In this document: piece after piece, positions 305 to 40,158 of the stretch | Position numbering within the stretch: position 1 is the stretch's first letter | How the letters are laid out: each line of letters opens with the position of its first letter | NCBI GenBank assembly: GCA_944358735.1 | Contig: CALVRT010000062.1 | Span: 1-43,126 of the forward strand | DNA length: 43,126 nt | Direction of reading: 5' to 3' | DNA from: an uncultured Bacilli bacterium | GTDB lineage: Bacteria; Bacillota_I; Bacilli_A; RF39; UBA660 | Translations under genes and position numbers: made by a program | The notes under the pieces: generated by a model | What the model saw: the letters and a program-made list of their open reading frames with translations, nothing else | The model's database searches: none | Told to the model about the DNA's origin: nothing

Positions 305-1453
305 TTAAGCGGGTGCTTTTACTTTAATATTTTCATCATACATTTTTACAACACTACTATATTTATCATATAAACGTTTATAATCACTATTATAATCAGT
401 ATTCATTTTGCTAAAAGGTATTACTTTAAAATCATACCATTTACTTCCTTTTTTATAATAATTGTAAAGTAGTTCATTATTTAAATTTTCTAAAGTAATA
501 CTTGTTTTCTTTCCTTTGGTTTTTTTGACAATATCAACACTTGTCATTAATTCAACCATAGTATTATAATCATTATTTGTACTTTGAGCAGAAATAAAGT
601 TGCCTAAAGAATAAATAACTAAAGTATCATCGATAAAAGTAATTGGTTCTATTATATGAGGATGTGTACCAATAATAATATCAACACCTAAAGATGCTAA
701 ATATTCAGCTTGCCTTTTTTGTTCAGCACTTGGCTCTGTTTGATACTCCGTACCCCAGTGCATTGACACTAATAAAACATCGACTTTATCCCGAACCTTT
801 TCAACATCACTTTTAACCTTTTCATCACTATAAAGGTTAACTAAATAATCTTTACCTTCGGGAACTGAAATTCCATTAGTACCATAAGTATAAGCTAAAA
901 GTGTATAAGTAATATTATTTTTTTCAAATATTTCTATTTCATCAGCTTCTTCTTCACTACAGTAACTACCAGCAGATAAAACATTTTCTTTACTATTCCA
1001 ATATTCACAAGAATTTATTACAGCTGTTTCTCCTCTATCTAAAGTATGATTATTAGCTAAACTAACTAAATTAAAGCCAGCATCTAGCATTGCGTCACCA
1101 AACTCCTGTGGACTATTAAATGTAGGATAATCAGAAAGGCCAATTGAAGTTCCCCCTAAAATACTTTCTTGATTATAAAAAGCTAAATCATAATTCTCGA
1201 CAATTGGTTTAATTAGCTCTAATTGACTAGTAAAATCATAAGTACCATTTTTATAGCCATCGTTATAAAGAGAACTATGTAGTAAAGCATCCCCAACCAT
1301 TACTAAACTAAGTTTATTTGTTTCTTCTTTTATTTCGGATTTTTCAGTTTTTGTTTCATCTTTTGTTTCTGGCTTGTCCACTAATCTCGTTAAAAAGAAA
1401 ATGGCTAAAGCCCCTATTATTACAGCTAAAATCACTACTACTATTTTTTTCAT
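305..1453 (-). CDS. CapA family (PGA_cap) metallophosphatase-fold protein, membrane anchored
   Basis: Motifs VGDALLH, NQES, LANNHTLD, SMHWGTE, GTHPH, YSLGNF; N-terminal TM helix. Confidence 0.9.
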   Translation of the reverse strand: MKKIVVVILAVIIGALAIFFLTRLVDKPETKDETKTEKSEIKEETNKLSLVMVGDALLHSSLYNDGYKNGTYDFTSQLELIKPIVENYDLAFYNQESILGGTSIGLSDYPTFNSPQEFGDAMLDAGFNLVSLANNHTLDRGETAVINSCEYWNSKENVLSAGSYCSEEEADEIEIFEKNNITYTLLAYTYGTNGISVPEGKDYLVNLYSDEKVKSDVEKVRDKVDVLLVSMHWGTEYQTEPSAEQKRQAEYLASLGVDIIIGTHPHIIEPITFIDDTLVIYSLGNFISAQSTNNDYNTMVELMTSVDIVKKTKGKKTSITLENLNNELLYNYYKKGSKWYDFKVIPFSKMNTDYNSDYKRLYDKYSSVVKMYDENIKVKAPA

Positions 1454-7640: not shown

Positions 7641-9944
7641 TTACTCTTTAAATTTAAACTTATTAACTAACTTGTCACAAACACCAAAATAGAAATTAAA
7701 CATCATAAAGGCAATCATTCCAAGAATCGCTAGTAAGATAAGTAAATTAGGCGTTAATATAACAAGTGAAAATAACGTTCTAAACCCAACAATAAATATT
7801 ACAAAAATTGTAATTAAGAAAACAAATAAAACTCTTCTTAAAAGATTAAAAGGAACAGATATCCGGTATAAAAGCATAAATCCTGTAAAGCCTGTTAAAA
7901 TAACAGCTAAAGTTGATACTTCCTCTGGAGATAATCTAATAATGCTAGGTAAAACACTTAATATAACAATATTGGAAACAATTGTTAAAGCGGTAGGCAG
8001 TGATTTCTTTAAAACATTAATAATAATTCTTCCATTAATCCGCTCATTATTTGGTTCAAGAGCCAAGATAAATGATGGAATTCCAATCGTTACTACACTA
8101 GTTAAGGTAAGCTGAATGGGAATAAAAGGATATTCTCTATCTAAAAATAAGAATATTAAAGCAAGAAGTGTTGCGTAAGTCGTTTTACAAAGAAATAATG
8201 ATGAAGAACGCTGCAAGTTATTAATACTTCGTCTTCCTTCGGCTACAACTTTTGGCATAGCTGAAAAATCAGAATCTAGTAATACAATTTGCGAAACATT
8301 ACGAGCTGCATCACTACCACTATTCATAGCCACACTACAATCAGCTTCTTTTAAAGCTAAAACATCATTAACCCCATCCCCCGTCATTGCAACGGTATGT
8401 CCTTTTGCTTTTAAGGCCATAATTAAAGCTTTTTTCTCACTAGGTTTAACTCTTCCAAAAACGTTATACTCATCAGCAATTTCTTCAATTGGTTTATTAT
8501 TTCTTGATAAATCAATGTATTTTACATTAGAAAGCCCAACCTTTTTAGCTACACCTGCCACCGTTTCTGGATTATCGCCAGATATTAATTTAATATCAAC
8601 GCCTTGCTCTTTAAAGTATTCAAGAGTCATACGGGCTTCTGGTCTTATTTCATCACTGATTAAGACAAGGCCAAGCGGTACAATATCATCTGGTAAAGTA
8701 TCCGTTAAAACTTTTTTTGATTTTGCTAACAAAACCACCCGGTTATCTTCAGTAAACTCATCTAAAAGTTTTTTTAATTTAGCTTTCGGACAAACTATTT
8801 CTGGAGCTCCCAAAATATAGCTCACTTCATTAAAAGAAATTCCCGACCATTTTCTTTGCGACGAAAAAGGAACTATTTTTTTTACCGCTTCCTTATTCTT
8901 TTTCGCATATTTCTCACTTATAGCTTCCATCGTTTGGTTATCACTAGCCATATGATAACTCATTAATCCTAAAGCCATTTCTATTTCCCCTTTAGAAACA
9001 TTTTCAAGTGGTAATACATCATTAACTTTCATTACCCCTTTAGTTAAAGTCCCCGTTTTGTCTAAACAAATAGTATCAACCCTAGCAAGCGTTTCAATAC
9101 AATAAAGTTCCTGCACCAAAACCCTTTGTTTAGCGAGTCGCATAACGCTAATAGCTAAAACAGTACTAATAAGTAAAACTAACCCTTCTGGTATCATACC
9201 AATTAATGAAGCAACAGTACTAACAACGGCATTTTTAAAGGTATGACCTGGTAAATTTAATTGATGCATAAACATTAATATTCCAAGGGGGATAATAAAA
9301 ATAGAAATACCTTTAATAATTTTTTTAATAAAATTCATAATTTCAGAATTAGCCTTTTTTATATATTTAGCTTCAGCCGATATTTTAGCGGCATAATTAT
9401 CAGCACCAACGTGAATAGTTTTACAGTAACACCAGCCACTAACAATATAACTACCAGATAATAATTCATCACCAGCGCATTTCGTTACTGATTCACTTTC
9501 GCCAGTAATTAATGATTCATTAACTAAAACTTCGCCGGATAAAATTTGACTATCCGTCGCGATTTGGCTACCGGCTTTTAACCGGCAAACATCACCTAAT
9601 ACAATATCATTAATACCAATTTCTTGTTCTTTACCGTCCCTAATAACGGTCACTTTAGCCACATTAAGTAACGATATTTTATCAACGATTATTTTACTTC
9701 TGATTTCTTGAATAGTACTAATTAACGTATTACAAATAACAACCCCTAAAAAAAGTAAATTTTTATATTCACCGACTAAAAAAATAGCTAGTCCAAGTCC
9801 AAGATTAAGAAAGTTAAATAAAGTTAAAAAATTGGTAGCAATTATAACCTTAATACTTTTAGTATTAACATCAGCTTTATAATTGACAAGACCTTTATTA
9901 GTTCGATTTAAAACTTCCTCGCTTGTTAAACCAGTTACTTTCAT
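7641..9944 (-). CDS. cation-transporting P-type ATPase (CtpE-like)
   Basis: Motifs TGES, MIPEGL, DKTGTLT, SGDN, GDGVND. Confidence 0.92.
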   Translation of the reverse strand: MKVTGLTSEEVLNRTNKGLVNYKADVNTKSIKVIIATNFLTLFNFLNLGLGLAIFLVGEYKNLLFLGVVICNTLISTIQEIRSKIIVDKISLLNVAKVTVIRDGKEQEIGINDIVLGDVCRLKAGSQIATDSQILSGEVLVNESLITGESESVTKCAGDELLSGSYIVSGWCYCKTIHVGADNYAAKISAEAKYIKKANSEIMNFIKKIIKGISIFIIPLGILMFMHQLNLPGHTFKNAVVSTVASLIGMIPEGLVLLISTVLAISVMRLAKQRVLVQELYCIETLARVDTICLDKTGTLTKGVMKVNDVLPLENVSKGEIEMALGLMSYHMASDNQTMEAISEKYAKKNKEAVKKIVPFSSQRKWSGISFNEVSYILGAPEIVCPKAKLKKLLDEFTEDNRVVLLAKSKKVLTDTLPDDIVPLGLVLISDEIRPEARMTLEYFKEQGVDIKLISGDNPETVAGVAKKVGLSNVKYIDLSRNNKPIEEIADEYNVFGRVKPSEKKALIMALKAKGHTVAMTGDGVNDVLALKEADCSVAMNSGSDAARNVSQIVLLDSDFSAMPKVVAEGRRSINNLQRSSSLFLCKTTYATLLALIFLFLDREYPFIPIQLTLTSVVTIGIPSFILALEPNNERINGRIIINVLKKSLPTALTIVSNIVILSVLPSIIRLSPEEVSTLAVILTGFTGFMLLYRISVPFNLLRRVLFVFLITIFVIFIVGFRTLFSLVILTPNLLILLAILGMIAFMMFNFYFGVCDKLVNKFKFKE

Positions 9945-12941: not shown

Positions 12942-13016
12942 GCAGGTGTAGTACAACGGTTAGTATATGGCCTTGCCAAGGCTAAGATGCCGGTTCGATT
13001 CCGGTCACTTGCTCCA
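12942..13016 (+). tRNA. tRNA-Gly(GCC)
   Basis: Cloverleaf with acceptor GCAGGTG/CACTTGC, anticodon loop TT-GCC-AA, T-loop TTCGATT, encoded CCA. Confidence 0.96.
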
Positions 13017-13026
13017 TTATGAAATT

Positions 13027-13055
13027 AACCCTTGAAAAATCAAGGGTTTTTGTAT
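13027..13055 (+). terminator. hairpin downstream of tRNA-Gly
   Basis: AACCCTTGA-AAAA-TCAAGGGTT followed by T-tract. Confidence 0.75.
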
Positions 13056-13068
13056 ACTAAAATGTAAT

Positions 13069-13090
13069 TAGGTACATATTAGGTACATAT
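13069..13090. repeat. 11-bp tandem repeat x2 (possible integrase arm-type sites)
   Basis: TAGGTACATAT TAGGTACATAT followed by degenerate CAGGTG. Confidence 0.7.
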
Positions 13091-13126
13091 CAGGTGTTAG
13101 GTGCAATTTCACCTCTTAATTACCTC

Positions 13127-13923
13127 TTATTTCAAATATTTTATATCAGTTTTATTAAGTATTTGCATTTGCGAAATGGCAATTTTATTTAGTCTCTCAA
13201 GCCTTTCTGATTGCTTTAATCCATCATTAATAAAAACAGAATTTAAATTTTCTAAATTTGCTAAACAAATTAACTCATTAATAGTAGCATAATCTCTTAT
13301 ATTTCCATCTTTATTTATATTTTTTGATCTCCATTCTTTTGCTGTCATACCAAATAAAGCCATATTTAAGACATCTGCTTCTGCTGCATATATACGATTT
13401 ATTTGTTCTTTAGTTAATTTTATAGGTATTAAATTTTGTTTAATGGCATCAGTATGTATTCTATAATTTATTTTAGACAGTTCTCTTTTTGCATTCCAAC
13501 CTAATTGTTTTTGCTCCTCTGGTTTTAATCTTTCAAATTCTTTGATTAAAAGTAATTTAAATTTTGGGCTAATCCACATTCCAAATTCAAAAGCGATATC
13601 TTTATGAGCATAAGTTCCACCATATCTTCCTGCTTTTGATATTAAACCAATAGCATTTGTCTTTTTTACCCATTCTTTAACACTAATTTTATAACTATTT
13701 AATCCTGTTTGACTTTTAATTATGGCGAATTCGCCATAATTAAAATTAGGGTTATGTATTTCTTCCCATATTCCTAAAAATTCAATAGTATTTCTATTTC
13801 TGAGCCAATCAGATACAAAGAAATCACCATCTTTAGATTTAAGCATATCTGTAATTGATATATAATCTTCATCATTTATCTTAAAATACGAATTTTTTGA
13901 TCTAATACTGTTAGTTCGGCCAT
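13127..13923 (-). pseudogene. KilA-N domain DNA-binding protein, frameshifted near the 5' end
   Basis: SD plus ATG at 13923 gives MAELTVLDQKIRIL; a 1-nt loss near 13882 disconnects it from INDEDYISITDMLKSKDG. Motifs WLRNRNTIEFLGIWE and GRYGGTYAHKDIAFEF. Confidence 0.85.
13714..13745. repeat. perfect 32-bp palindrome inside the KilA-N coding sequence
   Basis: TTTTAATTATGGCGAATTCGCCATAATTAAAA equals its own reverse complement. Confidence 0.95.
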
Positions 13924-14228
13924 TATATCTCCTTTATCAATAATTAATATATTTTATTTTTCCTTATTTTTTATAAGGTAAATATCTTTAACTTATAAGT
14001 CATCTTTAACAAACAATCTTAGAATATTACATGCTTCAGCTTCATCATGTTCTACTTTTAGTATAGAAATTTCTTCTTTTAGTTTTTCACATTTGAAGAA
14101 TGCAAGTTTACCAATGGCATGATTCCATTTTCAGAAATTTAAACTAAAATTAGGATTATTATACTATAAAATTTAAAAAATATCCATATTATTATTAAAA
14201 TTAATAACAAAAAAACTAGCAAATAATA

Positions 14229-15341
14229 CTATCCGCTAGTTTTAATATTATCAATTTTTTCTAAAAAGCAATTTAAACCTGTATACCAATTAAACATGCC
14301 TAACTTTTTACTAGCATATATCTGATATTCTTCATTTGTATAATTTTTATTATTAGTTTTCCACCTGTTTAATACCCTATCATAACAAGTTTCAACACTT
14401 GTTCTCATTACAATTATTTTCCCTTTTAAAATAGAATAATCTTTTATATTTCGGTACTGCGCCGAATCAATAACGATAATTTTATTAGTGGTTTTAAAAT
14501 ATTCTAATATTTTTATATAAAATTCATCAAAATTAGTAAATAAATAATCTTTAGGTTTATCATTAAATATATTTCTTAACTCCACACTCTCTTTATTATC
14601 AGATAATCCATTACTAAATACAATATCAGTATCAATTACTACATAATTATCATCATTTAAATATTTATTACTAAAATATGACTTACCACTACCAGATTCT
14701 CCAGTTAAATTTATTACTTTATCACCAGTAATATCTCTTATGTAAGGCTCTTTATCTATAAATCTACTTATTAACAAATCAGATTTAATTTCATTTAAAT
14801 ACTGCATAACTTCATCATATACTTCCGTACCATTTTTAACAGCATCACTACTTTTATATGAAGTAACAAAATCATTTATTTCACTTAAAACAATATCTAT
14901 ATTATCCCTATTCACTTTATCTTTAATAATTTTTATGCATGTATTCCTATAACCCATAATTGCGCAACCAATTAAAGCTTTATAATAAGATTTTTCTGGT
15001 AAATTAGATTTTAAATATAAATTCATAGCAATATCATCAGTTACAGTTCTTGGATTATGAAGTATTATTTTATTACTTCTAAATACTCCATCAGGAGTAG
15101 ATTCACTAGAACAGTTAACAACTTCTGCATCTTTTGGAATTTCTACATCATATAAGGTATCACCACGAATTAGCCATCTTAATATTTTATCTTCTGTACT
15201 AAAGTTAAATCCGCCCATATCCCTAGGATTTATTGCCTTAGGATTCCACTTATCAGCAACATTAATTTCATCTACTTTATAATGTACATCACTATTAGCG
15301 CCTGAAGTAGTATCAAACATTACTTTAACATATTTACTCAT
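14229..15341 (-). CDS. unknown N-terminal domain fused to a P-loop nucleotide-kinase-like domain
   Basis: Walker A GESGSGKS, VIDTD, IVIDS, ETCYDRVLNR; N-domain GGFNFST...LYDVEIP...FRSNKIIL. Confidence 0.75.
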   Translation of the reverse strand: MSKYVKVMFDTTSGANSDVHYKVDEINVADKWNPKAINPRDMGGFNFSTEDKILRWLIRGDTLYDVEIPKDAEVVNCSSESTPDGVFRSNKIILHNPRTVTDDIAMNLYLKSNLPEKSYYKALIGCAIMGYRNTCIKIIKDKVNRDNIDIVLSEINDFVTSYKSSDAVKNGTEVYDEVMQYLNEIKSDLLISRFIDKEPYIRDITGDKVINLTGESGSGKSYFSNKYLNDDNYVVIDTDIVFSNGLSDNKESVELRNIFNDKPKDYLFTNFDEFYIKILEYFKTTNKIIVIDSAQYRNIKDYSILKGKIIVMRTSVETCYDRVLNRWKTNNKNYTNEEYQIYASKKLGMFNWYTGLNCFLEKIDNIKTSG

Positions 15342-15394
15342 ATTTTTATCCTTTCAAAATTATATTTATTTCATACAATTAACCATTACCAAAA

Positions 15395-15541
15395 TTAATA
15401 GTTTTTAGTGTTTACACAATAACAAATCGCTATTACTATATCTTGATTATATATTTTAGATTTCCATGCGTCAAGACTTATGTCGGAAATTCCGACCGAA
15501 GTTCATTCCTTAAGTTCACTATCATTTAATATGTTATCTAT
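15395..15541 (-). pseudogene. relic of a RhuM-family gene
   Basis: Translates IDNILNDSELKE*TSVGISDISLDAWKSKIYNQDIVIAICYCVNTK, matching the RhuM pattern NI..EL...YNLD.II.VGYRV.S as recalled from memory. Confidence 0.6.
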
Positions 15542-15545
15542 TTAA

Positions 15546-15640
15546 CCTTTTTTCTTTATAAAAGTTTAACAATTTAATATAATAAGACCAACTAAATTGT
15601 GTCACCACTAGTGTCGCAATTAAAAAATTTACTTTCCTTC
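15546..15640 (-). pseudogene. relic of a YhcG/DUF1016 gene
   Basis: Translates IATLVVTQFSWSYYIKLLNFY versus IATTVSSQLSWSHYVELI in the yhcG at 24 kb; 29/36 nt identity of 15586-15621 to 24025-24060. Confidence 0.75.
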
Positions 15641-15702
15641 AAAAAATATTGCCATTAAATATCAAATATGAGACAATTAATTTATATCAAGGAGGATAAG
15701 GC

Positions 15703-16233
15703 ATGGAAAATTATATTTGTAAAATAGCCACTTTAGAAGAAATTATCAAAAAATGCGACTATGAAATTAAAAGCCATCCAGGAAATGAAATGTGGAATGT
15801 TTTTAAAAAGCGAGCTATCGAAAAATTTAAAGAAAGAACTGCTATCACTTATATAGGAATATTAAATGACAAAATTATATGTGAAGCAACAGCTTATATA
15901 AATATCAAGGCATTTGAAGGTGATATTAGTAATCCGGATGGCTTATTATCTGAAGAAATGGTTTATTTATCTGGTTTTAGAACAAACAAAGAATACGAGG
16001 GTAATGGATATTTTTCAAAGTTATTTAAATTTATGGAAAAAGATTTAAAAGAAAAAGGTTATAACAAAATGTGTTTAGGTGTAGAACCAAATGAAATCAG
16101 AAATATACAAATATATTTTAAATTTGGATTTACGAACTATATAAAAACAACTATTGAACGTTTACCCGCCAAAAATAAAGAATCAAACCCTGAAGAAGTA
16201 ATAATAAATTTTTATTACAAAAATATAGATTGA
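15703..16233 (+). CDS. GNAT family N-acetyltransferase
   Basis: FRTNKEYEGNGYFSKL acetyl-CoA motif, LGVE..N..IYFKFGF; strong SD. Confidence 0.88.
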   Translation: MENYICKIATLEEIIKKCDYEIKSHPGNEMWNVFKKRAIEKFKERTAITYIGILNDKIICEATAYINIKAFEGDISNPDGLLSEEMVYLSGFRTNKEYEGNGYFSKLFKFMEKDLKEKGYNKMCLGVEPNEIRNIQIYFKFGFTNYIKTTIERLPAKNKESNPEEVIINFYYKNID

Positions 16234-16246
16234 TTTCTTTTCTTAA

Positions 16247-16283
16247 AAAATAACACCGTCGAAAAAATCTACGGTGTTATTTT
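16247..16283. terminator. bidirectional terminator
   Basis: AAAATAACACCGT...ACGGTGTTATTTT. Confidence 0.75.
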
Positions 16284-16560
16284 CATTAAATCAATCAAAT
16301 TAATATTATAAATTATTTTTAATTACTAACTTTAATATTTACACCATCAACATTTTTATAAATACGTTTGGCGTTTTTTTCTAATAAAATGAATCAAATA
16401 GAGAAAAAATATATTTTAATTATTTTGTATTTTTCATACCACCATACACTAATCATTACTTAGGTTGCTATATTTTAATTTTCCTAATATATCAGAGATA
16501 CCGATACGGTAAGCCACATACCACGGCCAGTACTAAAAAAAGATGATTTATCAATCAAAA

Positions 16561-18705
16561 TCATCTTTTTCTTGCACTTAAGTTTTCGTCGTCAAATGCA
16601 AGTTCACCAGCATAACTCATTGTATATAAAGGCTCTGGTTTTTGCGTTGGCTGATTAATACCTAATGATTGTAAGAATAGTTTATTAATCATTTCAGTTT
16701 GATATGGCGACCTAAACAAATTAACAATTATTTCTCTATTATATTTATAACTATTATTATTTTCAATATTTCTTAACAAATCAACGGTATCTATAACACC
16801 TTTATCCCGGCATGAAGTTAATAATTCTTTACAAATTGTGTTATATAATTCTTCTGCTAATTCATTAAAAGCATAGTTTTCTCCTGGCCTTGCTTCATCT
16901 TCAAAGTATTTTAATCCCGCAGAAGTAAGCCATATATTGGCAAATATCGCTTTATCGATAATAGATGGGCCTGTTTGAATTTGACCGGTTTTAATATCTC
17001 TCACCTTAATTTTAGATGCATCTGATTCAAATGAATCTTTTGAATCCATGAATATTTCATATGTTGACGCTAAAGACTTTAATTCACTGAAATTTGGAAT
17101 CTGAATTGTAGGCTTCGTTTGCTTATTTTGTCTATTTAGTGAATCAATATCAACTTTTCTAGATGTTCCAAAAAATTTAACTAAATCAGGATTATAGGTT
17201 CTTATACCATTTGCATCGTAATAACCTATGTATCCGCCTGTCTCATCAACCTTTCTATCAAGTCTTTCACGACTTAAATAATCATCGACCATACTTTGTC
17301 TAGTATCTTTAAAAAAATTTCTTTCAGTAAATACAGAATTTCTTTTTAAAACATCTTTACCATTTTCATTAACCATTTCAAATATATCATATCTCATAAC
17401 ATCAATATCTTTTGCTTTGCGCGGAGCATCAAACATTTGCTGCGCTATAAATACACTTCCATCGCTTCTTGTAAATCTTTTTGTTGGATATACAAATAAA
17501 TTCCTTTTTTCTTCCGGTTTGGATATTTCTTGATATGAGGATACTAATTCCAACTTGTTTCCAACTTCACTTTTTCTAACCTTACCAATATAGTAAGTTT
17601 TCTTTGCTATTGAATCAGCAATATTTTCTTTTGAAAACAAAATATTATCAATAGTTTCTTCATAATTAGGTGGAATAGGTTTTCCAAAATTTTTACAATC
17701 AACTAAATGAGTAACGTTTGTATCGCTATATAGTATTAATGGTAATTGCTTTGTACCATCTTTTGAAATTTCAACATAATAATATCTATAATAATTTGTA
17801 TTATTAATTGTATTGTCACCGATTTGAGCAACTATAAATCTCGAACCATCTTTTCGCGTTCCATAATAAGTAGTTGAACGATAATCTCTTGCTCTTCCTA
17901 TCCCCGTTTGTGAATATATTTGTTTTACCAGTTGGGGTTCGATTTGCGATAATGTATGTTCATAATCTTGAGTTCTTTCACCTGGTGCAGGATGATGCTT
18001 TCTACTAAATGTCGAAATATCTTTTCCTAACCAATCAAAACTCTTCGATTTACCAGAACTAAATATATTATTATCCCAAGTTAAATCAATAGGATATTTT
18101 TTATCATCAATATTTACTATATTCCATGCATGACCACCAGTCCCATCAGATTTTGTATATCCTTCCACATATTCACAATTTATACCATTTCTATCCATAA
18201 ACTCTTTTAATATCATTGCATATCCAGCACATACTGTTTGTTTGGTAATCAAACCTCTTAAACTTCTAATTTCGCTTGAAAGTTTATGCTCAAATTTCGG
18301 ATCATACATTATACCTGTTTTTAATCTATCATACACATAAAGTAATTTTTGAATATCTGACCAATTTCTATTTAAACCAGATTCAATCCTTTCGATTTCT
18401 TCTAATATTTTAATTGTTTCATTTCTCGTATAAATAACTGCACTTGTATAATATTCACCGGTCTCCCCATTACTAAATCGAATATTACCACGTCTTCTTA
18501 TTCTATCCTCATCATATCCACCAGCAATTCTTATTGCTACATTTGAATCTAGTTGTCTTATCATAGATGAAGTTATTCCTTTAGTATTTTGTACTTCAAC
18601 CAATATTTTAGCATCAGGATATTGATTGCATACATTTTTTATATAATTAATATCAAAAGGTTCATTTAATTTAAATGTAATTTTATACTGATAATCATAT
18701 TTCAT
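16561..18705 (-). CDS. transglutaminase-like (papain-fold) domain protein with an internal duplicated domain
   Basis: Triad VCAGYA / HAWN / DLTWD; no signal peptide; start refined to ATG at 18705, overlapping the LRR gene end. Confidence 0.85.
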   Translation of the reverse strand: MKYDYQYKITFKLNEPFDINYIKNVCNQYPDAKILVEVQNTKGITSSMIRQLDSNVAIRIAGGYDEDRIRRRGNIRFSNGETGEYYTSAVIYTRNETIKILEEIERIESGLNRNWSDIQKLLYVYDRLKTGIMYDPKFEHKLSSEIRSLRGLITKQTVCAGYAMILKEFMDRNGINCEYVEGYTKSDGTGGHAWNIVNIDDKKYPIDLTWDNNIFSSGKSKSFDWLGKDISTFSRKHHPAPGERTQDYEHTLSQIEPQLVKQIYSQTGIGRARDYRSTTYYGTRKDGSRFIVAQIGDNTINNTNYYRYYYVEISKDGTKQLPLILYSDTNVTHLVDCKNFGKPIPPNYEETIDNILFSKENIADSIAKKTYYIGKVRKSEVGNKLELVSSYQEISKPEEKRNLFVYPTKRFTRSDGSVFIAQQMFDAPRKAKDIDVMRYDIFEMVNENGKDVLKRNSVFTERNFFKDTRQSMVDDYLSRERLDRKVDETGGYIGYYDANGIRTYNPDLVKFFGTSRKVDIDSLNRQNKQTKPTIQIPNFSELKSLASTYEIFMDSKDSFESDASKIKVRDIKTGQIQTGPSIIDKAIFANIWLTSAGLKYFEDEARPGENYAFNELAEELYNTICKELLTSCRDKGVIDTVDLLRNIENNNSYKYNREIIVNLFRSPYQTEMINKLFLQSLGINQPTQKPEPLYTMSYAGELAFDDENLSARKR

Positions 18706-19402
18706 TGTCTTCACCACAAAACTCAACCATATTTTCATTTAAAACTAAAATATTGTTTTTCATTAAATTATTAAATAATTCCTTATTGCTGTTATATTGT
18801 TTTTCATCTATGCTTATTCTTTTTAAATTTAATAAACTATTTAAAAAATCAAAATTAGAAATATTAGTATTATCTATATACAATTCTTCTAATGTATCAA
18901 TATTTAATCCAATGTTATCTATTATATTTGAATAAGATATTTGTAAATATTTTAAATGATTTAGCATATTCAACTTTTCAATTTTAATTCTTCCATTTAC
19001 AATTGATAACTCTTCTAAATTTTCAAGAACATTTACAAACGAATAATTCTCTATCTTACAATTTATTAAAGATAATGATTTAAGTTTAAATGAAGCTATT
19101 AAGTCAGCATTTTCAAACTCACAATTTTCAAATACAAATTCTGATAAATTGGTTAAATTCAAAAAAATATTATAATTATCATTAAATATATATCCGTTTC
19201 TTAATGTAATAGTTTTTAAGTTTTTAAGTTTTAATAGTTCTTCCAAAAAAACAAAACTACTATCTGTTTCATTATTATAATCAATAACTACTTCTGTTAT
19301 TTTATTTAATTCTTGCTCTGTAAATTCATTATCAAGTTTATCTAGCTTAAACATTATATAATTAGCCAAATTTTCATTTTCAATTTTAATTATAGTTTCC
19401 AT
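18695..19402 (-). CDS. leucine-rich repeat protein
   Basis: Repeated LxxLxxLxL motifs (LKNLKTITL, LENLEELSI, LNHLKYLQI, LLNLKRISI); ATG at 19402, alternative GTG at 19411. Confidence 0.85.
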   Translation of the reverse strand: METIIKIENENLANYIMFKLDKLDNEFTEQELNKITEVVIDYNNETDSSFVFLEELLKLKNLKTITLRNGYIFNDNYNIFLNLTNLSEFVFENCEFENADLIASFKLKSLSLINCKIENYSFVNVLENLEELSIVNGRIKIEKLNMLNHLKYLQISYSNIIDNIGLNIDTLEELYIDNTNISNFDFLNSLLNLKRISIDEKQYNSNKELFNNLMKNNILVLNENMVEFCGEDNEI

Positions 19403-19476
19403 TAAATGCACCTTACTTTCATATATAATTATAACATCAATTCATCGATTTGTTCTAAAATTGTAAATATCACTAC

Positions 19477-19522
19477 TAAAATGTACAATTTTGTACATTT
19501 TATTTTCCCATTTTTGTACATT
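19477..19522. promoter_or_regulatory. 12-2-12 inverted repeat plus extra half-site upstream of the LRR operon
   Basis: TAAAATGTACAA-TT-TTGTACATTTTA, then TTTTGTACATT. Confidence 0.6.
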
Positions 19523-19732
19523 CTTATAGTATCATTAACATTAAATGTATCAAAAGGAATATCTTCGTTTTAAAAACATCAACAAATGCTCCTTTAAAGC
19601 GCTCAATATGATTTCATTTTGTTCAGTCCATAAATCTACTCTAGCACCATTTCTTGTAAAATTACAAATTTTTCTATAATTTGTTTATTAATTAAAATTT
19701 TGATAGAATAACAGGCAAAGAGGTGAAAAAAT

Positions 19733-20557
19733 ATGAATAGTTTTAATTACTCAAGTACAATTTTAATATGTTCTAAAATTAAAGATTTTAAAGAGTATTT
19801 AAAGAATATAAAAAGTGACTTTCATAAACTAGATAAAAGAAATAAAGAAAAATATTTAACAACAATAAAGTTAATGAGTTATACAGCTTTAAGTGGTAAA
19901 ACTAAAGAATCATACAGAACTCTTTATAATCATAAAGCTATAAAAAAGCTCATACTAGAACAATTTGCTGGCTTAAACTTACAAAACTTTGATTCTATTA
20001 TTGATGATTTACTAACAGTTTTATCTTCTATTACAGATACCCATACTACCCCAAACATATCAGAAGATAATATCAAAACAATATTTAAAACAATTAATCA
20101 AAAAATCCCTGAATTTAATAATATTTTATCCAATATTGATTTAGATATTTTAATTTTAGATTACACTGATAAAAATGTAAATTCAGCTACTGTTCCTTCA
20201 CAAAATTTTAAAAAATTTAAAATCCTTTGCTTTTGTATGAAAGACAACGATGAATACAAAAGTGGTGCTCTTAATCCTGTTTATGTTTTCTTGCACGAGC
20301 TAGGACATATTATTTGCTGGCTTGTAACAAGTGAATATAAAAAAACTCCTAATTCATTTTTTCAAGATATAGGAAAATATTTTATTGGTCTAACACCGGA
20401 TAATCCTGATGCTTTAGAAGTTTTCGCCGATTGTTTTGCCATGGCTATAATGTATAACACACCTTTAAATAAATATAATCCCTTTTCTATGTTTTCTGAA
20501 GAATTATTTATTGATTTAGAAAAGTATTTTACCAAAATTATTAAAACTATAAAATAA
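19733..20557 (+). CDS. zincin-like metallopeptidase (ImmA/IrrE-like)
   Basis: FLHELGH plus downstream EVFADCFA. Confidence 0.7.
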   Translation: MNSFNYSSTILICSKIKDFKEYLKNIKSDFHKLDKRNKEKYLTTIKLMSYTALSGKTKESYRTLYNHKAIKKLILEQFAGLNLQNFDSIIDDLLTVLSSITDTHTTPNISEDNIKTIFKTINQKIPEFNNILSNIDLDILILDYTDKNVNSATVPSQNFKKFKILCFCMKDNDEYKSGALNPVYVFLHELGHIICWLVTSEYKKTPNSFFQDIGKYFIGLTPDNPDALEVFADCFAMAIMYNTPLNKYNPFSMFSEELFIDLEKYFTKIIKTIK

Positions 20558-20559
20558 AT

Positions 20560-20607
20560 AGAGTATAGAATTTTACTCATACGTGATCTTCTATACTCTT
20601 TTTTTTA
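20560..20607. terminator. terminator between convergent genes
   Basis: AGAGTATAGAA...TTCTATACTCT followed by T-tract. Confidence 0.65.
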
Positions 20608-20619
20608 CATACTAATATT

Positions 20620-22362
20620 TTAATCAGCTGTCCAGCGATTTTCAAATTTATCTGGAGACATTTTTAACACTTTATATAAATTATCTCTTAACTCTTTTCC
20701 TTCAGACATATAGCTTAATGCATTTATTTGACTTCGTACGGCATCGCGAATATTTTTTAAAGAACCTTTATTCTTACTCCAATTTTGAGGGCTAAATATC
20801 TTCCCGTTATCTCTAGCCTCAGCATTAGCATTTTCAAAAGCCATATTTAAACAATTTCCTGCTAAATCAACTACTTTATCCATTAAATTATTTTCTTTTA
20901 AAAGATTTAAAACAATAGTCGGATTAGGAACCGTTTCAGGCATATTATTTATAACACAGAATACATACGAAATTGTATATAAATGATGATATGTAGCGTA
21001 TGACTTCATTGCTAATAATTGCTCATTCATATTTAACGGATTACTCTCATTCCACCTAAGCTTAACCGCATCAAATAATTCTTTTAAAGCTTGAATATTT
21101 TCTGGTTGATATTCTTTATGAAATAATTGCGTAAAATATTTATCAAAAATTTTAGTCTCACTATAAGATATTGTTGGTCTTTGAGAATGCCAAGCAATTA
21201 ATTCTTTGCCCAAATCTGTCAAATCAATTATATGGTTGGTATTATACTTGGCAGTATTTACTTTTTCACCACGCTTAGTTTTAAAATATCCATCTGGATA
21301 TCTTTCTTCATATGCTTTCTTAATTGCTAAAATATTTTTATCATTGCTTCTTAAATCTCTGGCTTTAACTGCACTTTGAGAATTAGTGTTTACACTTATC
21401 TTATCTGCTTTGTCATTATCGGCAATTTCATAAAACTTAAACAAAATATATCCATCATTTGTAGCCTTTATTGATTCACTACAAGAATAAATCGTATTTA
21501 ATGACTGGCAACCATTTACAACATTCAATTCTTTAGCCTTCAAAACATTATTAACTACTTCAAGTTTTGAACATATTGCTGTGATACCATTGTGATAAAA
21601 GAAAAATTCTTTGGGATTATTTTTTATCGTTTTAGCAATCCCTTTATTAATCTTATTATTTCCTAAAGATTGTCTAACATTTTTTCTAAACAAACTTCCA
21701 TCATGTATACCAGGAATATTTATACATTCTTTTAAAGGTATTGCCGCAATTATAGCTTTTGTGCCATCCAAATCTAATTCAATATATTTATTAGGTTGAA
21801 TTTTAAAATCATAATTAATATATGGCCTACTTTTATTCATAGCTTCATCATATCTAAAATTTATAACATCCAAATCCACCAATGTAAAATTTGCCGTTAA
21901 ATTTTCATAAGACGATAAAGTTTTTTGAAACACTTCAAAATCCTTTTTGGCTGCCGGTGTTAAATCTGCTATTGTTACCAACTCAAAACATATCGTATAA
22001 TCATCATCTATGGCATTAGAAATGTCATTAATCTTTGCTTTCAACTTTTCGTTAGCATTTTCTTGCAATGCATCTAAATTATTTATTTGGACCCATGATG
22101 CTAAAACTTCTTGTAATGGTTCAGAATCTACTTTACCTGAGTAATATTTACCTTGTAATATATAAATTATTGAATCTTGATTATCTATATATACAGCATC
22201 TATTTGTTTATCTCCCGCTCCATCAGTAATACAATCTTTAGTTTCAACAGTATCTAAATTAAAAATATTCCGCAAATACCATGCGATAAACCTTTGTCCG
22301 TCATTGGCATAATTGTTTTGATAATATTCACTTTTAATATCTTCACTTATCTTTTCTTTCAT
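20620..22362 (-). CDS. AIPR family (abortive infection phage resistance) protein
   Basis: DGAGDKQIDAVYI..QGKY, NVRQSLG, FFFYHNGIT, VVNGCQS, NSQSAV...DLRSND. Confidence 0.9.
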   Translation of the reverse strand: MKEKISEDIKSEYYQNNYANDGQRFIAWYLRNIFNLDTVETKDCITDGAGDKQIDAVYIDNQDSIIYILQGKYYSGKVDSEPLQEVLASWVQINNLDALQENANEKLKAKINDISNAIDDDYTICFELVTIADLTPAAKKDFEVFQKTLSSYENLTANFTLVDLDVINFRYDEAMNKSRPYINYDFKIQPNKYIELDLDGTKAIIAAIPLKECINIPGIHDGSLFRKNVRQSLGNNKINKGIAKTIKNNPKEFFFYHNGITAICSKLEVVNNVLKAKELNVVNGCQSLNTIYSCSESIKATNDGYILFKFYEIADNDKADKISVNTNSQSAVKARDLRSNDKNILAIKKAYEERYPDGYFKTKRGEKVNTAKYNTNHIIDLTDLGKELIAWHSQRPTISYSETKIFDKYFTQLFHKEYQPENIQALKELFDAVKLRWNESNPLNMNEQLLAMKSYATYHHLYTISYVFCVINNMPETVPNPTIVLNLLKENNLMDKVVDLAGNCLNMAFENANAEARDNGKIFSPQNWSKNKGSLKNIRDAVRSQINALSYMSEGKELRDNLYKVLKMSPDKFENRWTAD

Positions 22363-22375
22363 ACATTTACTCCTA

Positions 22376-23296
22376 TCATTTTTTATAATTCTTTGCTACT
22401 TTTATTAAATTTGTAAGTAATTCCTTATATGAAGACAAAATTATTATATCTTCACTATCTTTTTCAAAAGAATTTGTCTTTTGTGACAATTTATTTTTAA
22501 TAATAATCTTATTCTTAATTCCTTTAATCTTACAGGATTTATTCATTTTACTAATACACTCTTCTAACGATTCATTATCTTTTTGAAATTTAAGAGCAAT
22601 AACATTTTCTTTATCCTCTGATGGGATAATTGCATCTATTCCAGAATTTCTTTGTATAGGCAAACAATCAAATAAATCAATAATAAATTGTTCTTCTTTT
22701 GATTTATGATTATATTTTTCAATACCATCTTCAAGCAATTTAGAATCGGTTTTCACAATATTTCCAGTTAATCTTTCTTTACACAAATTAATTGCCTCAT
22801 CAGAAATATCAATACCAATATATTTCCTTTTTAAAAGTTTCGCCGTAGCTAAAGCAGTTCCGCTTCCACAAAAAGGGTCAAGAACTATATCACCTTCATC
22901 TGAACCTATTTTAATTATCTGTTCCAATAAAAGAATCGGCTTTTGTGTTGGATAACCATTACGCTCTTTCGCTTTTGGATTCAAATATGGTATATTCCAA
23001 ACATCAGATAAAGGAACACCTTTTTTGTCATAATTATTTACAATATTACCATCTTGGTCAGTTTGATATACCGTTATTCCATCACTATCTTTAACTCTAT
23101 TTTGTAATATTTGATCTAAATTAGTAGTTAAAGAATAATTTGTATATAAAGTATTAAATTTATAATTATTTGTTTTACTATAAAAAAATATATTTTGATG
23201 AGAATTTAATAAACCTTTTTTGGAATTAGACCATCTTTTATATGCCCAAATTATTTCACTTCGAAAATTATTACTTCCAACATTTGTTAATCCCAT
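22376..23296 (-). pseudogene. N4/N6 DNA methyltransferase (beta class), N-terminally truncated
   Basis: YPTQKP and VLDPFCGSGT are present; the catalytic DPP(Y/F) motif and preceding N-terminal region are absent. Confidence 0.8.
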
Positions 23297-23322
23297 AACT
23301 TACCACCACCTTTATAATTTTT

Positions 23323-24350
23323 TTAATATTCATTTAATTCAAAATTTTTCTTTTCTTCTTCTACAGCATTAATCAATTCTTGTTCTGTCGGCATATGCAA
23401 TTTATATTCTGTCGAAAATATTGTTTTGTTATCTTCAGGAAGTGTATATTTTACAACAGTTTTATTTCTGTTTGTAGAAAGCAATATTCCCACCGTTGGA
23501 TTTTCATCATCTTGTTTTATTTCTCTATCGTAGTAATTAACATACATTTGCATTTGCCCGATATCTTGGTGAGTTACTTTTCCTATTTTTAAGTCAATTA
23601 TAACAAAACATCTTAATAATCTGTTATAGAAAACTAAATCCGGATAAAAATGATCTTCTTCTAACGTTAATCTCACCTGATTGCCAACATAACTAAAGCC
23701 TTTACCAAGTTCTAGTAAAAATTCTTTTAAGTGTTCTAATATATTTTTTCCAAATCGCTTTCTAAATAATCTGTATTTTCCTTAATGTCCAAAAACTCTA
23801 AGACAAATGGATCTTTTACCAAATCTTTACCAGTTTTTAATACCTGCCCTCTTTCTGATAATTCCAATACCTTATTTTTATCAGCAGATAAAGCTAATCT
23901 TTCATATAACAAAGAATCCTTTTGTCTTTGAAGTTCTCTGACACTCCAATTAGAATTAATTGCTTCTTTAAAATAGAAGTTTCTTTTAGTTTTTTCTTCT
24001 ATCTTTATTAACTCTACATAATGCGACCAACTCAATTGCGACGACACTGTTGTCGCAATTTGAAAGCAATTATAAAATTTTCGCATCCTTTCCAAATTTC
24101 TTTTTGAAAAGCCTTTGCCAAATTCTTTAGTTAATTTTTCTGATAACTTTTCTAAAATAGCATCACCGTAACTGGCCCTTTCATTTCCTTGTTGCACTTC
24201 CATAATCACTTTACCTATATTCCAATATAAATTAAGCATTTCAGTATTTACAGCACTATAAACTTTATTTCTACTATTGATAACTAGCTATCTTATATTA
24301 GCAAATATATTATTTATTTCGCGATCATCATTTATTAATTCATTAACCAT
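23323..24350 (-). pseudogene. yhcG: YhcG/DUF1016 PD-(D/E)XK nuclease family gene, disrupted twice
   Basis: ATG at 24350; in-frame TAG at 24288-24290; frameshift in an A6 tract at 23744-23749. Motifs LYWNIG, LSWSHY, KDPFVLEFL, DLVFY, GQMQMY. Confidence 0.9.
24034..24060. repeat. in-frame inverted repeat in yhcG
   Basis: AATTGCGAC-N9-GTCGCAATT, encoding IATTVSSQL. Confidence 0.9.
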
Positions 24351-24399
24351 AAATTTCCCCCTTTTCCTTGCTTTTTTTCATTACTTTAATGATATCACA

Positions 24400-24446
24400 T
24401 TTCCTATTATTTTCCTAATAAATTTCCTAATAAATTTCCTAATAAA
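24400..24446. repeat. 12-bp tandem repeat x3 plus one degenerate copy
   Basis: TTTCCTAATAAA at 24411, 24423 and 24435; TTTCCTATTAT at 24400. Confidence 0.85.
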
Positions 24447-24483
24447 ATCAAAAAAACAAATGATTTTCTTATAACCATTTGTT

Positions 24484-24867
24484 TTAATCATTACCAAGTA
24501 AATATAAACTAATACTAAATAAACCAATACCAAGCATAATTAAGGATGATTTAACATCTATTTGCCCTAGCACATTTAATACTATAATAGCAATGCTCAT
24601 TGCTAAAGCGACCGCTTTTAAAATTAAATTCACTAAACTTTTGTTTTTAGTAACAACCCCATTTTGCATTTTAGTATTTAATAAATCATTGACTGGCACT
24701 TCCAGCACATCAGCAAGCCTAGCAATGGTATTGATATCAGGATAAGATAAATCTCTTTCCCATTTAGAAACAGCTTTATCAGTAACGTTCATCTTTTCCG
24801 CAAGTTCTTGCTGGGTATAACCTTTTTTCTTCCGTAAAGAAGCAATCGTTTTTCCAATACTTTTCAT
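24484..24867 (-). CDS. XRE-family HTH regulator with two C-terminal TM helices
   Basis: TQQELAEKMNVTDKAVSKWER; SD GGAGG before ATG at 24867. Confidence 0.88.
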   Translation of the reverse strand: MKSIGKTIASLRKKKGYTQQELAEKMNVTDKAVSKWERDLSYPDINTIARLADVLEVPVNDLLNTKMQNGVVTKNKSLVNLILKAVALAMSIAIIVLNVLGQIDVKSSLIMLGIGLFSISLYLLGND

Positions 24868-25046
24868 TTTTATAACCTCCACAAAAATATTACCATTATT
24901 TATATATAAAGTAAACCGACAATCAGTTTAGTTTTATAAACTATTAGTTTACTAATTACAAACTATGTCCAGTTAACGACCTTTTAAATTTTATCATACA
25001 TCTTAATGTTTGACCATTATTAAAAAGATAATAAGTAAATTCCCTA

Positions 25047-39273: not shown

Positions 39274-40158
39274 TTAATCAATTGTAATCAATTCATATTC
39301 CCTGCTACCAACACCAAGTTCTGTTGCCGCCTCAACTGTATGAACACCGTGACGTGTTTCAATTCTTTCTATTAACTTATCTTTACCTGGGTCAGTACTA
39401 TTATAAACCAAATCAAGACAAGCTTGGTCTACAGCAACAGGGTCAAGGCTAGCTAAAATACCAATATCCTGCATACAAGGTGCAGAAGCATTACCATCAC
39501 AATCACAATCAACAGAAAGATTTTTCATAACATTAATATATGCCGCATTGCCTTTAAAATAATTAACAACACTTAAAGCCGCGTCGGCCATAGCTTCTAG
39601 GAAATGGTCTTGTTCTGGTAAATTATTCCATAACTCTTTTTGGTCGCTAACTTTACCAGCAGTATGAATTAAAGTTTTACCAGCTGATGATGCGCAGCCA
39701 ATTGAAAGTTGTTTTAAAGCTCCACCATAGCCACCCATAGCATGACCTTTAAAATGTGATAAAACAAGTAATGAATCATATTTAGCTAAATCTTTACCAA
39801 CATAATTTTTCTTTAAAATTTTACCGTTTGGCACATCAAGTTCCATATCTGGCCCTTCAGCATCTAATAAATCAAACGGAAAATATTTTTCCCACTCGTG
39901 TTCTTTAATTAATTCACGATGTTTTTCAGTTGAGTTTCTTGCGCCTTCATAAGCAGTATTACACTCAACAACTGTTCCATTTACGTGATTAATAACATCT
40001 TTAACAAATTCTGCTCGTAAATAGTTTTGATTTCCTTTTTCACCAGAATGCATTTTAACAGCTACTTTCCCTGGTAATTTAATACCTAAAGCTTCATAAG
40101 CTTTAATAATGTTTTCTGGAGTAATCTCCTTAATAAAATAAACTTTTGATTTTTCCAT
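39274..40158 (-). CDS. DUF362 family Fe-S protein
   Basis: VAVKMHSGE, SHFKGH, GGALKQLSIGCAS, DCDC, DPVAVDQAC. Confidence 0.88.
   Translation of the reverse strand: MEKSKVYFIKEITPENIIKAYEALGIKLPGKVAVKMHSGEKGNQNYLRAEFVKDVINHVNGTVVECNTAYEGARNSTEKHRELIKEHEWEKYFPFDLLDAEGPDMELDVPNGKILKKNYVGKDLAKYDSLLVLSHFKGHAMGGYGGALKQLSIGCASSAGKTLIHTAGKVSDQKELWNNLPEQDHFLEAMADAALSVVNYFKGNAAYINVMKNLSVDCDCDGNASAPCMQDIGILASLDPVAVDQACLDLVYNSTDPGKDKLIERIETRHGVHTVEAATELGVGSREYELITID

Follow-up and report, generated by a model that had tools for sequence, protein, structure and literature searches.

The window analyzed here is the 43,126-nucleotide contig CALVRT010000062.1 (C62) of an uncultured Bacilli bacterium, and its subject is a class of short palindromic DNA elements, or dyads, that lie in frame inside genes of the KilA-N and YhcG families. 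The host genome has 1.39 Mb in 104 contigs, of which the window is one, and a guanine-plus-cytosine (GC) content of 28%; run records give animal gut metagenomes as its origin. Directly behind a tRNA gene lies a region that looks like a decaying island (Table 1), whose Pfam content besides KilA-N includes an AAA_18 ATPase and GNAT, transglutaminase-like, leucine-rich repeat (LRR), AIPR, and N6/N4 methylase domains. The ribosome-binding site and ATG of the KilA-N gene, at 13924, sit in a different frame from its listed open reading frame (ORF), so the frame must shift close to a homopolymer run (about 13881-13890). Contigs of two other sequencing runs (X3 and X6) have one extra base at 13890, and the break is either strain-specific or an assembly error. 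The yhcG gene of the window (23323-24296) matches both domains of its family, yet not as one protein: the nuclease domain occupies an ORF of its own, so that the gene is split, and the N-terminal profile match (23898-24296) runs upstream of its ORF across one TAG. This yhcG is a broken family member and likely a pseudogene.

All four dyads that the original prediction had placed in the island are present, one in each of these genes and two standing alone. No other short-loop inverted repeat in the window is as long as the KilA-N dyad. The yhcG dyad had been described as a 9-9-9 inverted repeat; its 9-bp perfect arms and 9-nt spacer do exist, but an odd palindrome of 27 nt is the better description, centered on the G that opens a GTG codon; a conserved Trp codon follows 18 nt downstream. 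Three of the four dyads are richer in GC than their surroundings, as had been claimed for all (0.44, 0.44, and 0.41 versus 0.283 for the window), but the KilA-N dyad is not (0.25 overall), and its GC-rich part is the inner GGCGAATTCGCC only. Synonymous resampling with the codon usage of the genome reached the score of the KilA-N dyad in 0 of 5000 trials and that of the yhcG dyad likewise in 0 of 5000. When folded as single-stranded DNA and compared with 200 shuffles each, the dyads have z-scores of -7.8 (KilA-N), -3.0 (yhcG), -3.0 (15476), and -1.7 (15595); 0, 1, 2, and 15 shuffles, respectively, fold as well. Thus, the dyad at 15595-15621 is weak when taken alone.

The two solo dyads had been read as relics of a rhuM and a yhcG gene. 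At both, hidden Markov models (HMMs) of the RhuM and YhcG families have no match at an i-Evalue of 0.01 or below, and their flanks lack nucleotide similarity to family genes. Within 600 nt on either side of 15476-15502, the full-length RhuM HMM also has no match, and blastn to RhuM genes is empty. The core of that dyad matches dyads in full RhuM genes. Both elements are solo dyads with a family-like core rather than demonstrable gene remnants; the exception is a 15-residue motif (..IAT.V..Q.SWS.Y) on the minus strand at 15595-15621 that, on direct reading, resembles the YhcG family motif. The stems do not have the form of intrinsic terminators: the T-runs upstream and the A-runs downstream pair with each other, and no T-run follows the stem. 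A covariance search of the window with Rfam 15 (gathering score) found two tRNAs elsewhere and nothing at the dyads. Among the matches listed, the DNA contigs of four runs contain no variant within 13714-13745 and are silent on expression or inversion. Several public 31-mer contigs stop at 13739-13741, which is where a 31-mer graph should fail on a 32-bp palindrome; de Bruijn assemblies break at perfect dyads this long, and such loci may be fragmented in metagenome bins as a result.

Table 1. Positions of the dyads, their genes, and other features (window coordinates unless a contig or accession is given)
Feature	Position	Strand	Description
KilA-N family gene	13127-13924	-	Pfam PF04383, E 4.7e-23, 81.5 bits (cut-off 23.8); listed ORF 13127-13846
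KilA-N in-frame dyad	13714-13745	-	Perfect 32-bp palindrome, 32/32 self-complementary; center at the codon boundary between GAA and TTC; encodes FNYGEFAIIK
YhcG N-terminal domain (DUF1016_N)	23736-24296	-	Pfam PF17761, E 1.2e-42; ORF 23736-24239
YhcG C-terminal PD-(D/E)XK nuclease domain	23323-23676	-	Pfam PF06250, E 1.1e-35; separate ORF
yhcG in-frame dyad	24034-24060	-	27-nt odd palindrome, 12/13 pairs round one center base; encodes (Q)IATTVSSQ(L)
Solo RhuM-type dyad	15476-15502	+	11/13 pairs; 7+1+7 core with center GAA-A-TTC; ACTT/AAGT outside; in frame ..CRKFR..
Solo YhcG-type dyad	15595-15621	-	10/13 Watson-Crick pairs; minus strand reads LIATLVVTQFSWSYY
ORF6N in-frame dyad	C11:15522-15550		14+1+14; confirmed in relatives
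Bro-N in-frame dyads	C27/C87		10-12-bp arms, 5-nt loop; confirmed in relatives
Identical 27-bp YhcG dyads	C59:8342-8368 and 8925-8951		583 bp apart; gene and upstream relic
E. coli K-12 yhcG dyads	NC_000913.3, ORF nt 338-410		Two adjacent dyads: 15/16 pairs with 3-nt loop, and 15+3+15
tRNA gene	12942-13013		Directly precedes island region
Island region	13014-25000		
Divergent gene	18695-19411	-	
AT-rich palindrome	19477-19502		12+2+12, between the divergent genes
Divergent gene	19733-20557	+	
YhcG tandem arrays in relatives (examples)	G006:C18:18786-21851; G009:C1:579506-581663		
Perfect palindrome	C74:21574-21615		42 bp (21+21, 10 G/C per arm)

Dyads of this kind are a family-wide property: one such element occurs per gene, at one fixed codon position in the N-terminal domain. 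The measure used throughout the survey is the position of the best inverted repeat within the whole ORF. For YhcG in the genus, this repeat lies 18, 21, or 27 nt upstream of the Trp codon in 32 of 46 rows (three rows are duplicate mappings); in the class, 15 of 27 genes have it exactly at -18 nt and 4 more have it displaced by insertions. A set of 80 named YhcG loci covers many bacterial phyla and one archaeon, with a gene GC of 21-64%; here, the repeat is exactly at -18 in 63 of 76. The best repeat is also found at the family site in RhuM genes of metagenome contigs (74/81), ORF6N genes of the genus (31/33), and Bro-N-type genes of the class (20/26). KilA-N genes of viral contigs have it there in 45 of 45 cases; because one of the two peptide patterns used for that scan overlapped the dyad peptide, the test was redone with Pfam-based sampling, which gave 14 of 17. 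Fic genes of the class, the negative control, have it in only 2 cases out of 25; the two are close paralogues from the host genome, and Fic is thereby ruled out as a further dyad family. Viral-contig scans with Bro-N and Fic patterns were empty because these patterns came from N-terminal stretches of near-identical paralogues. The proposal that KilA-N, YhcG, and RhuM have an element in common is therefore borne out, and it extends to ORF6N and Bro-N-type genes. The dyads measure 17-39 bp and lie about 190-330 nt into the gene. Profile comparison with hhalign aligned RhuM-N with ORF6N at an E of 0.003 (probability 10%, upstream of the dyad only) and KilA-N with ORF6N at an E of 0.41; a common origin of the dyad site is thus not shown.

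Escherichia coli K-12 yhcG carries two dyads (Table 1) with a common CAGAC..GTCTG core, whose outer arms are self-complementary yet different between the two. A third may lie further upstream, possibly from about nt 300, according to an unscored reading by eye. Two YhcG-type dyads stand in tandem, 36 nt apart, in one gene of a Desulfobacteria metagenome-assembled genome, which resembles the multiplication in E. coli.

The host genome itself holds many copies, with profile matches to 13 DUF1016_N, 8 RhuM, and 3 KilA-N domains. In every YhcG copy that could be anchored, a conserved ..L.W.H motif is closely preceded by a GC-rich odd palindrome with a CA-N-TG core and with arms specific to the copy. 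The KilA-N copies (3/3) share a 16+16 dyad round GAATTC and differ in their inner arms, and the RhuM copies have arms of 10-13 bp round GAA-N-TTC or AAA-N-TTT. A scan of the genome for perfect inverted repeats (arms of at least 9, loop of at most 1, at least 3 G/C per arm) returned 35, compared with 3-7 under three Markov nulls. About 20 of the 35 belong to these families by a reading of the list that includes short relics assigned by motif; the scan also brought to light that ORF6N and Bro-N genes share the feature. YhcG paralogues are numerous in this small-genome genus and often stand in tandem, repeated about every 900 bp.

The complementarity of the arms is upheld by a constraint on nucleotides, not on protein. 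Arms differ among the paralogues of a single genome, yet they remain Watson-Crick complementary, and mirrored KilA-N residues swap by the reverse-complement rule (e.g., V/D, G/A, L/Q, and P/G). Because the center falls in three codon registers (between codons in KilA-N, at codon position 1 in YhcG and ORF6N, and at codon position 3 in RhuM), no peptide property explains the symmetry. The fixed YhcG center has 9.67 of 13 pairs, compared with 6.26 after synonymous resampling and 3.68 at 39,734 control centers, which are the other codon-position-1 centers in the same genes and of which 0.06% reach 10 of 13 pairs. Of 138 YhcG genes, 38 beat all 1000 of their own resamples; in the pooled test, 20,052 of 138,000 resamples reach the observed value, a number that is inflated because the dyads of some genes are displaced by indels. 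Synonymous differences at identical residues are rarer in the dyad than in the flanks (0.19 versus 0.44 in YhcG, 0.14 versus 0.50 in RhuM, and 0.027 versus 0.57 in KilA-N), and the dyad is the sole trough of such differences along the KilA-N and RhuM genes. A nucleic-acid-level constraint, which the original prediction had postulated, has thus withstood synonymous-resampling controls, with arms that covary and synonymous sites that are frozen in the dyad only. The GC content of the inner YhcG arms is 0.46-0.58 whether the gene is 25% or 58% GC. More generally, inner arms in YhcG and KilA-N stay near 50% GC at any gene GC, with rare codons used in AT-rich genomes; the arms of RhuM in AT-rich genes are the exception (GC 0.29).

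The constraint is strand-symmetric and acts on DNA rather than on sense RNA, since there is no excess of G:U pairs, centers and loops occur in both orientations, and the innermost pair is kept. Mismatches of the G:T and A:C types number 11 and 11 in YhcG, 9 and 15 in RhuM, and 3 and 12 in KilA-N (23 versus 38 in total), whereas a stem in sense RNA would be expected to accept G:U much more readily than A:C. The center base is G, C, A, or T in 45, 49, 11, and 11 YhcG dyads, respectively, and A or T in 39 and 32 RhuM dyads, and the RhuM survey includes asymmetric loops that occur in both orientations between the same arms (e.g., TTTTT and AAAAA). At the innermost KilA-N pair, GAA is found at 40 of 40 centers, compared with 67% elsewhere in the same genes (565:276 GAA:GAG). 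Of the proposed selection at the level of DNA or RNA, only the DNA part holds.

Neither exchange nor rapid variation is concentrated at the dyad, in disagreement with two earlier proposals. The first, a recombination or cassette-exchange site, is not supported by a maximum chi-square scan of 1539 YhcG paralogue pairs, in which only 2 of 90 breakpoints with a chi-square above 20 fall within 30 nt of the dyad and the strongest lie 60-375 nt downstream. The second, a hypervariable cassette rewritten by template switching, is likewise not supported by the comparison of close pairs, in which the dyad zone changes less than its flanks (0.038 versus 0.063, 0.024 versus 0.067, and 0.0045 versus 0.021, from small samples of 4, 31, and 7 pairs) and no compensated double change was seen. 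Dyads also persist in dead copies. Perfect dyads stand in stop-ridden frames on contigs C87 (13+1+13, three stops) and C68 (9+1+9). On contig C59, an identical dyad occurs in a gene and in a relic upstream of it; the relic has a 35-nt core identical to that of the neighboring gene, with flanks that are roughly 80% identical by alignment estimate and contain indels. In further solo dyads of the genome, the flanks are unrecognizable.

As had been predicted, the dyad lies between conserved protein blocks, where it encodes a loop and the start of a helix. The N-terminal domains of KilA-N, ORF6N, and Bro-N are of DNA-binding type, as judged by their Pfam names. AlphaFold models both domains confidently: the predicted local distance difference test (pLDDT) score of the KilA-N domain is 87.9, and that of the YhcG N-domain ORF is 81.8, although the C-terminal tail of the latter is poorly predicted from residue 140. 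The dyad peptide is modeled as a loop and the start of helix 48-57 in KilA-N and as a loop (59-64) and short helix, with lower local confidence, in YhcG. Helix periodicity would place the variable KilA-N residues 48, 49, 52, and 53 on one helix face, and the position of the encoded peptide suggests that the protein tolerates the dyad. Prediction also supports a symmetric homodimer of the KilA-N N-domain, with a score of 0.55 compared with 0.01 for the best of three controls; of solved homo-pairs, 20 of 30 attain the mark, as does 1 of 23 single chains, a calibration that holds roughly here, with our own alignment used. The runs agree in at least 96% of contacts, and the partner pLDDT is at least 81. 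The predicted interface comprises residues 28-41 and 93-118, and the dyad-encoded helix lies outside it. A search of solved structures by sequence returned none for YhcG or KilA-N, and Foldseek with the KilA-N model returned nothing at an E of 0.001 or below, only weak winged-helix rows.

A force that is selection or selection-like keeps the two DNA arms complementary at a single site in each gene. The explanation tentatively preferred here, plausible although short of probable, is a selected, hairpin- or cruciform-forming DNA element that acts in cis and putatively gates the expression of its own gene. Each DNA strand of the dyad would pair with itself to form a hairpin or cruciform, and the element would travel with the gene to throttle or gate its expression. 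Elongating polymerases may be blocked; alternatively or in addition, it may be a structure-specific landing site for a symmetric dimer of the gene's own N-domain. Such island or phage genes, which are potentially harmful and often end up in foreign operons, would thus be controlled independently of any promoter. Of these steps, the consequence for expression is the least supported. Intrastrand pairing is favored over the reading of a sequence because complementarity is kept at freely varying positions, and function is favored over a mutational drive because the GC content of the stem is buffered, few and linked families are involved, and the dyads are conserved across distant taxa. Several observations weigh against a gating hairpin or cruciform. 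Conservation through the center and persistence in dead copies are poorly explained: the innermost pair cannot form in a hairpin loop, and its symmetry is better accounted for by dimer recognition or copy correction, while perfect dyads that outlive their genes are unexpected if the sole role is the control of a live gene. The centers of high-GC YhcG homologues are GC-rich, and an easily melted center is therefore not universal. In vivo extrusion of cruciforms with 10-16-bp arms is generally considered difficult, and the dyad counts are drawn from related sequences within families, so that their independence is overstated.

An operator for the gene's own product is an unlikely but substantial alternative, in which a dimer of the N-domain would read the intragenic palindrome by sequence and form an elongation roadblock, with a separate site for each paralogue. 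Its attractions are the DNA-binding type of the KilA-N, Bro-N, and ORF6N domains, the predicted homodimer that would leave the dyad-encoded helix exposed, a DNA constraint that reaches the very center, the different dyads of paralogues in one genome, and the distance of the site into the gene. Intragenic operators are known to serve as roadblocks or loop anchors (the PurR box in purB, lac O2, and gal OI). Like the dyads, they are dyad-symmetric DNA sites a few hundred bases into a coding sequence and are translated in frame; in contrast to the dyads, they answer to a separate regulator, belong to a single gene, and lack family-wide arm covariation, and they are usually imperfect, whereas dyads are often perfect over 12-16 bp. 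Freely varying positions that stay complementary are also difficult to reconcile with an operator: if they are read, specificity must re-evolve at each change, and if they are not, the symmetry is unexplained. A second operator copy near the gene was sought as extra 10-nt arm copies, found in only 5/108, 1/58, and 1/39 loci, and the outer arms of E. coli yhcG are self-complementary yet differ between its dyads. Distinctly less likely is a functionless, self-perpetuating quasi-palindrome, in which template switching during replication copies one arm onto the other much faster than point mutations accumulate, so that the dyad would remain perfect, and its arms would covary, at every place where the protein allows it. 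Correction of quasi-palindromes by template switching is a mutational mechanism that would yield Watson-Crick-perfect arms, symmetry through the center, and flipped centers and loops, all as observed, and it accommodates the perfect dyads of pseudogenes and solo copies (the C87 dyad and the C59 relic). It also predicts frozen synonymous sites, because forward conversion would alter the partner residue. As a mutational process, however, it leaves unexplained the restriction to a few functionally linked families, evident from the Fic control, the YhcG control centers, and the genome scan, as well as arms near 50% GC in genomes with a GC content at third codon positions (GC3) of 0.16. Conservation of YhcG dyads across phyla and in one archaeon and the lack of compensated double changes among close pairs count against it as well.

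A hairpin in the sense mRNA that slows ribosomes, affects mRNA stability, or serves as a processing site would agree with stable stems (the DNA-folding z-scores of -7.8 and -3.0), a fixed position about 65-130 codons into the ORF, and the buffered stem GC, but it is very improbable in view of the absent G:U tolerance, the centers and loops in both orientations, and the conservation of innermost positions that cannot pair in RNA; nor is there an Rfam match at the dyads or a U-tract after the stem. Still more improbable is a role as a site of recombination or cassette exchange or as a hypervariable specificity cassette. In its favor are the tandem paralogue arrays and many relics of the genus, the tandem YhcG neighbors of which some have identical C-terminal and different N-terminal parts, and, in a study of programmed inversions, the enrichment of DUF1016 and RhuM beside inversion targets (PMC9881135). 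Against it stand the scattered breakpoints and a dyad zone whose conservation in close pairs exceeds that of its flanks by a factor of 1.7 to 4.7; because dyads differ between paralogues, no shared crossover sequence is on offer. Finally, a by-product of the amino-acid sequence or of chance has already been refuted by the controls. Residues do carry part of the symmetry, since the resampled YhcG site keeps more pairs than the control centers do, but resampling fails to reach either dyad of the window, more than a quarter of the YhcG genes beat all of their resamples, mirrored residues covary as reverse-complement codons in three frame registers, and the synonymous trough lies at the dyad.

More speculatively, and rather unlikely in our judgment, the dyad may be a previously undescribed kind of gene-borne, host-independent switch, which could take the form of a self-encoded operator or of a cruciform gated by supercoiling or replication. 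In the former version, the exposed helix or loop of each paralogue would be encoded by the very palindrome that its symmetric N-domain dimer recognizes, and site and reading head would change in step. In the latter, the cruciform would keep potentially toxic defense or phage genes shut until DNA topology shifts (e.g., during infection). In either version, the dyad would be a portable control device within coding sequence, common to the KilA-N, Bro-N, ORF6N, RhuM, and YhcG genes of bacteria and phages and, in the case of YhcG, to one archaeon as well.

Other systems with dyad-like DNA inside genes differ from the elements described here. Some replication origins lie inside the gene of their initiator, such as lambda ori in O and the pT181 ori in repC; these are likewise dyad-symmetric cis sites that are located in the gene of a potential actor and travel with it. 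Unlike the dyads, they consist of iterons with AT-rich regions or of a nick site and belong to known initiator families, whereas the dyads are usually single (E. coli yhcG has a tandem), lack initiator motifs, and occur in chromosomal island contexts. Rickettsia palindromic elements (RPEs), which are selfish in-frame insertions, show that ORFs can tolerate palindromic DNA and stay intact (PMC4316617); they measure about 100-150 nt, form one family across unrelated genes, and are present or absent among orthologues. The dyads do not behave as RPE-like mobile elements: they are 17-39 bp long, have family-specific sequences, and occur in nearly all members at one fixed place in the family profile. 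In Nematomorpha, mitochondrial genes contain coding palindromes, which are perfect inverted repeats with both arms translated (PMC6649704), but they are up to 284 bp long, number many per genome, and are lineage-specific; the dyads are short, one per gene, and conserved across distant taxa. Literature searches, with subscription journals and supplementary files outside their range, found no description of dyads in these families. The in-frame dyad is real and statistically robust, apparently undescribed, and far broader than first seen.

A conserved DNA dyad amounts to a hidden second layer of information within the coding sequence of five widespread gene families, which populate defense islands, type I restriction loci, and phage accessory regions. 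If functional, it would account for the control of such genes after they land in foreign operons, it would be a cis element that annotation, codon optimization, and heterologous expression now ignore or destroy, and it would be a rare natural case in which nucleotide pairing dictates paired amino-acid changes. If template switching alone maintains it, it would still be a striking natural case of concerted evolution inside genes that is driven by mutation. With its own dyads of this kind, E. coli K-12 yhcG is a convenient model in which the question can be tested directly.

Other palindromes were noted in the window and the host genome. The AT-rich palindrome between two divergent genes of the island looks like an ordinary operator-like site. 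The perfect palindrome on contig C74 starts 7 bp after a 488-codon open frame and lies about 700 bp upstream of a Fic-type ORF. The two Fic paralogues that account for the positives in the negative control lie on contig C39, are 85% identical, and have a 26-bp dyad at ..EFR(K/N)(I/V)DFSKH..; one compensated change, from A:T to G:C, separates their dyads.

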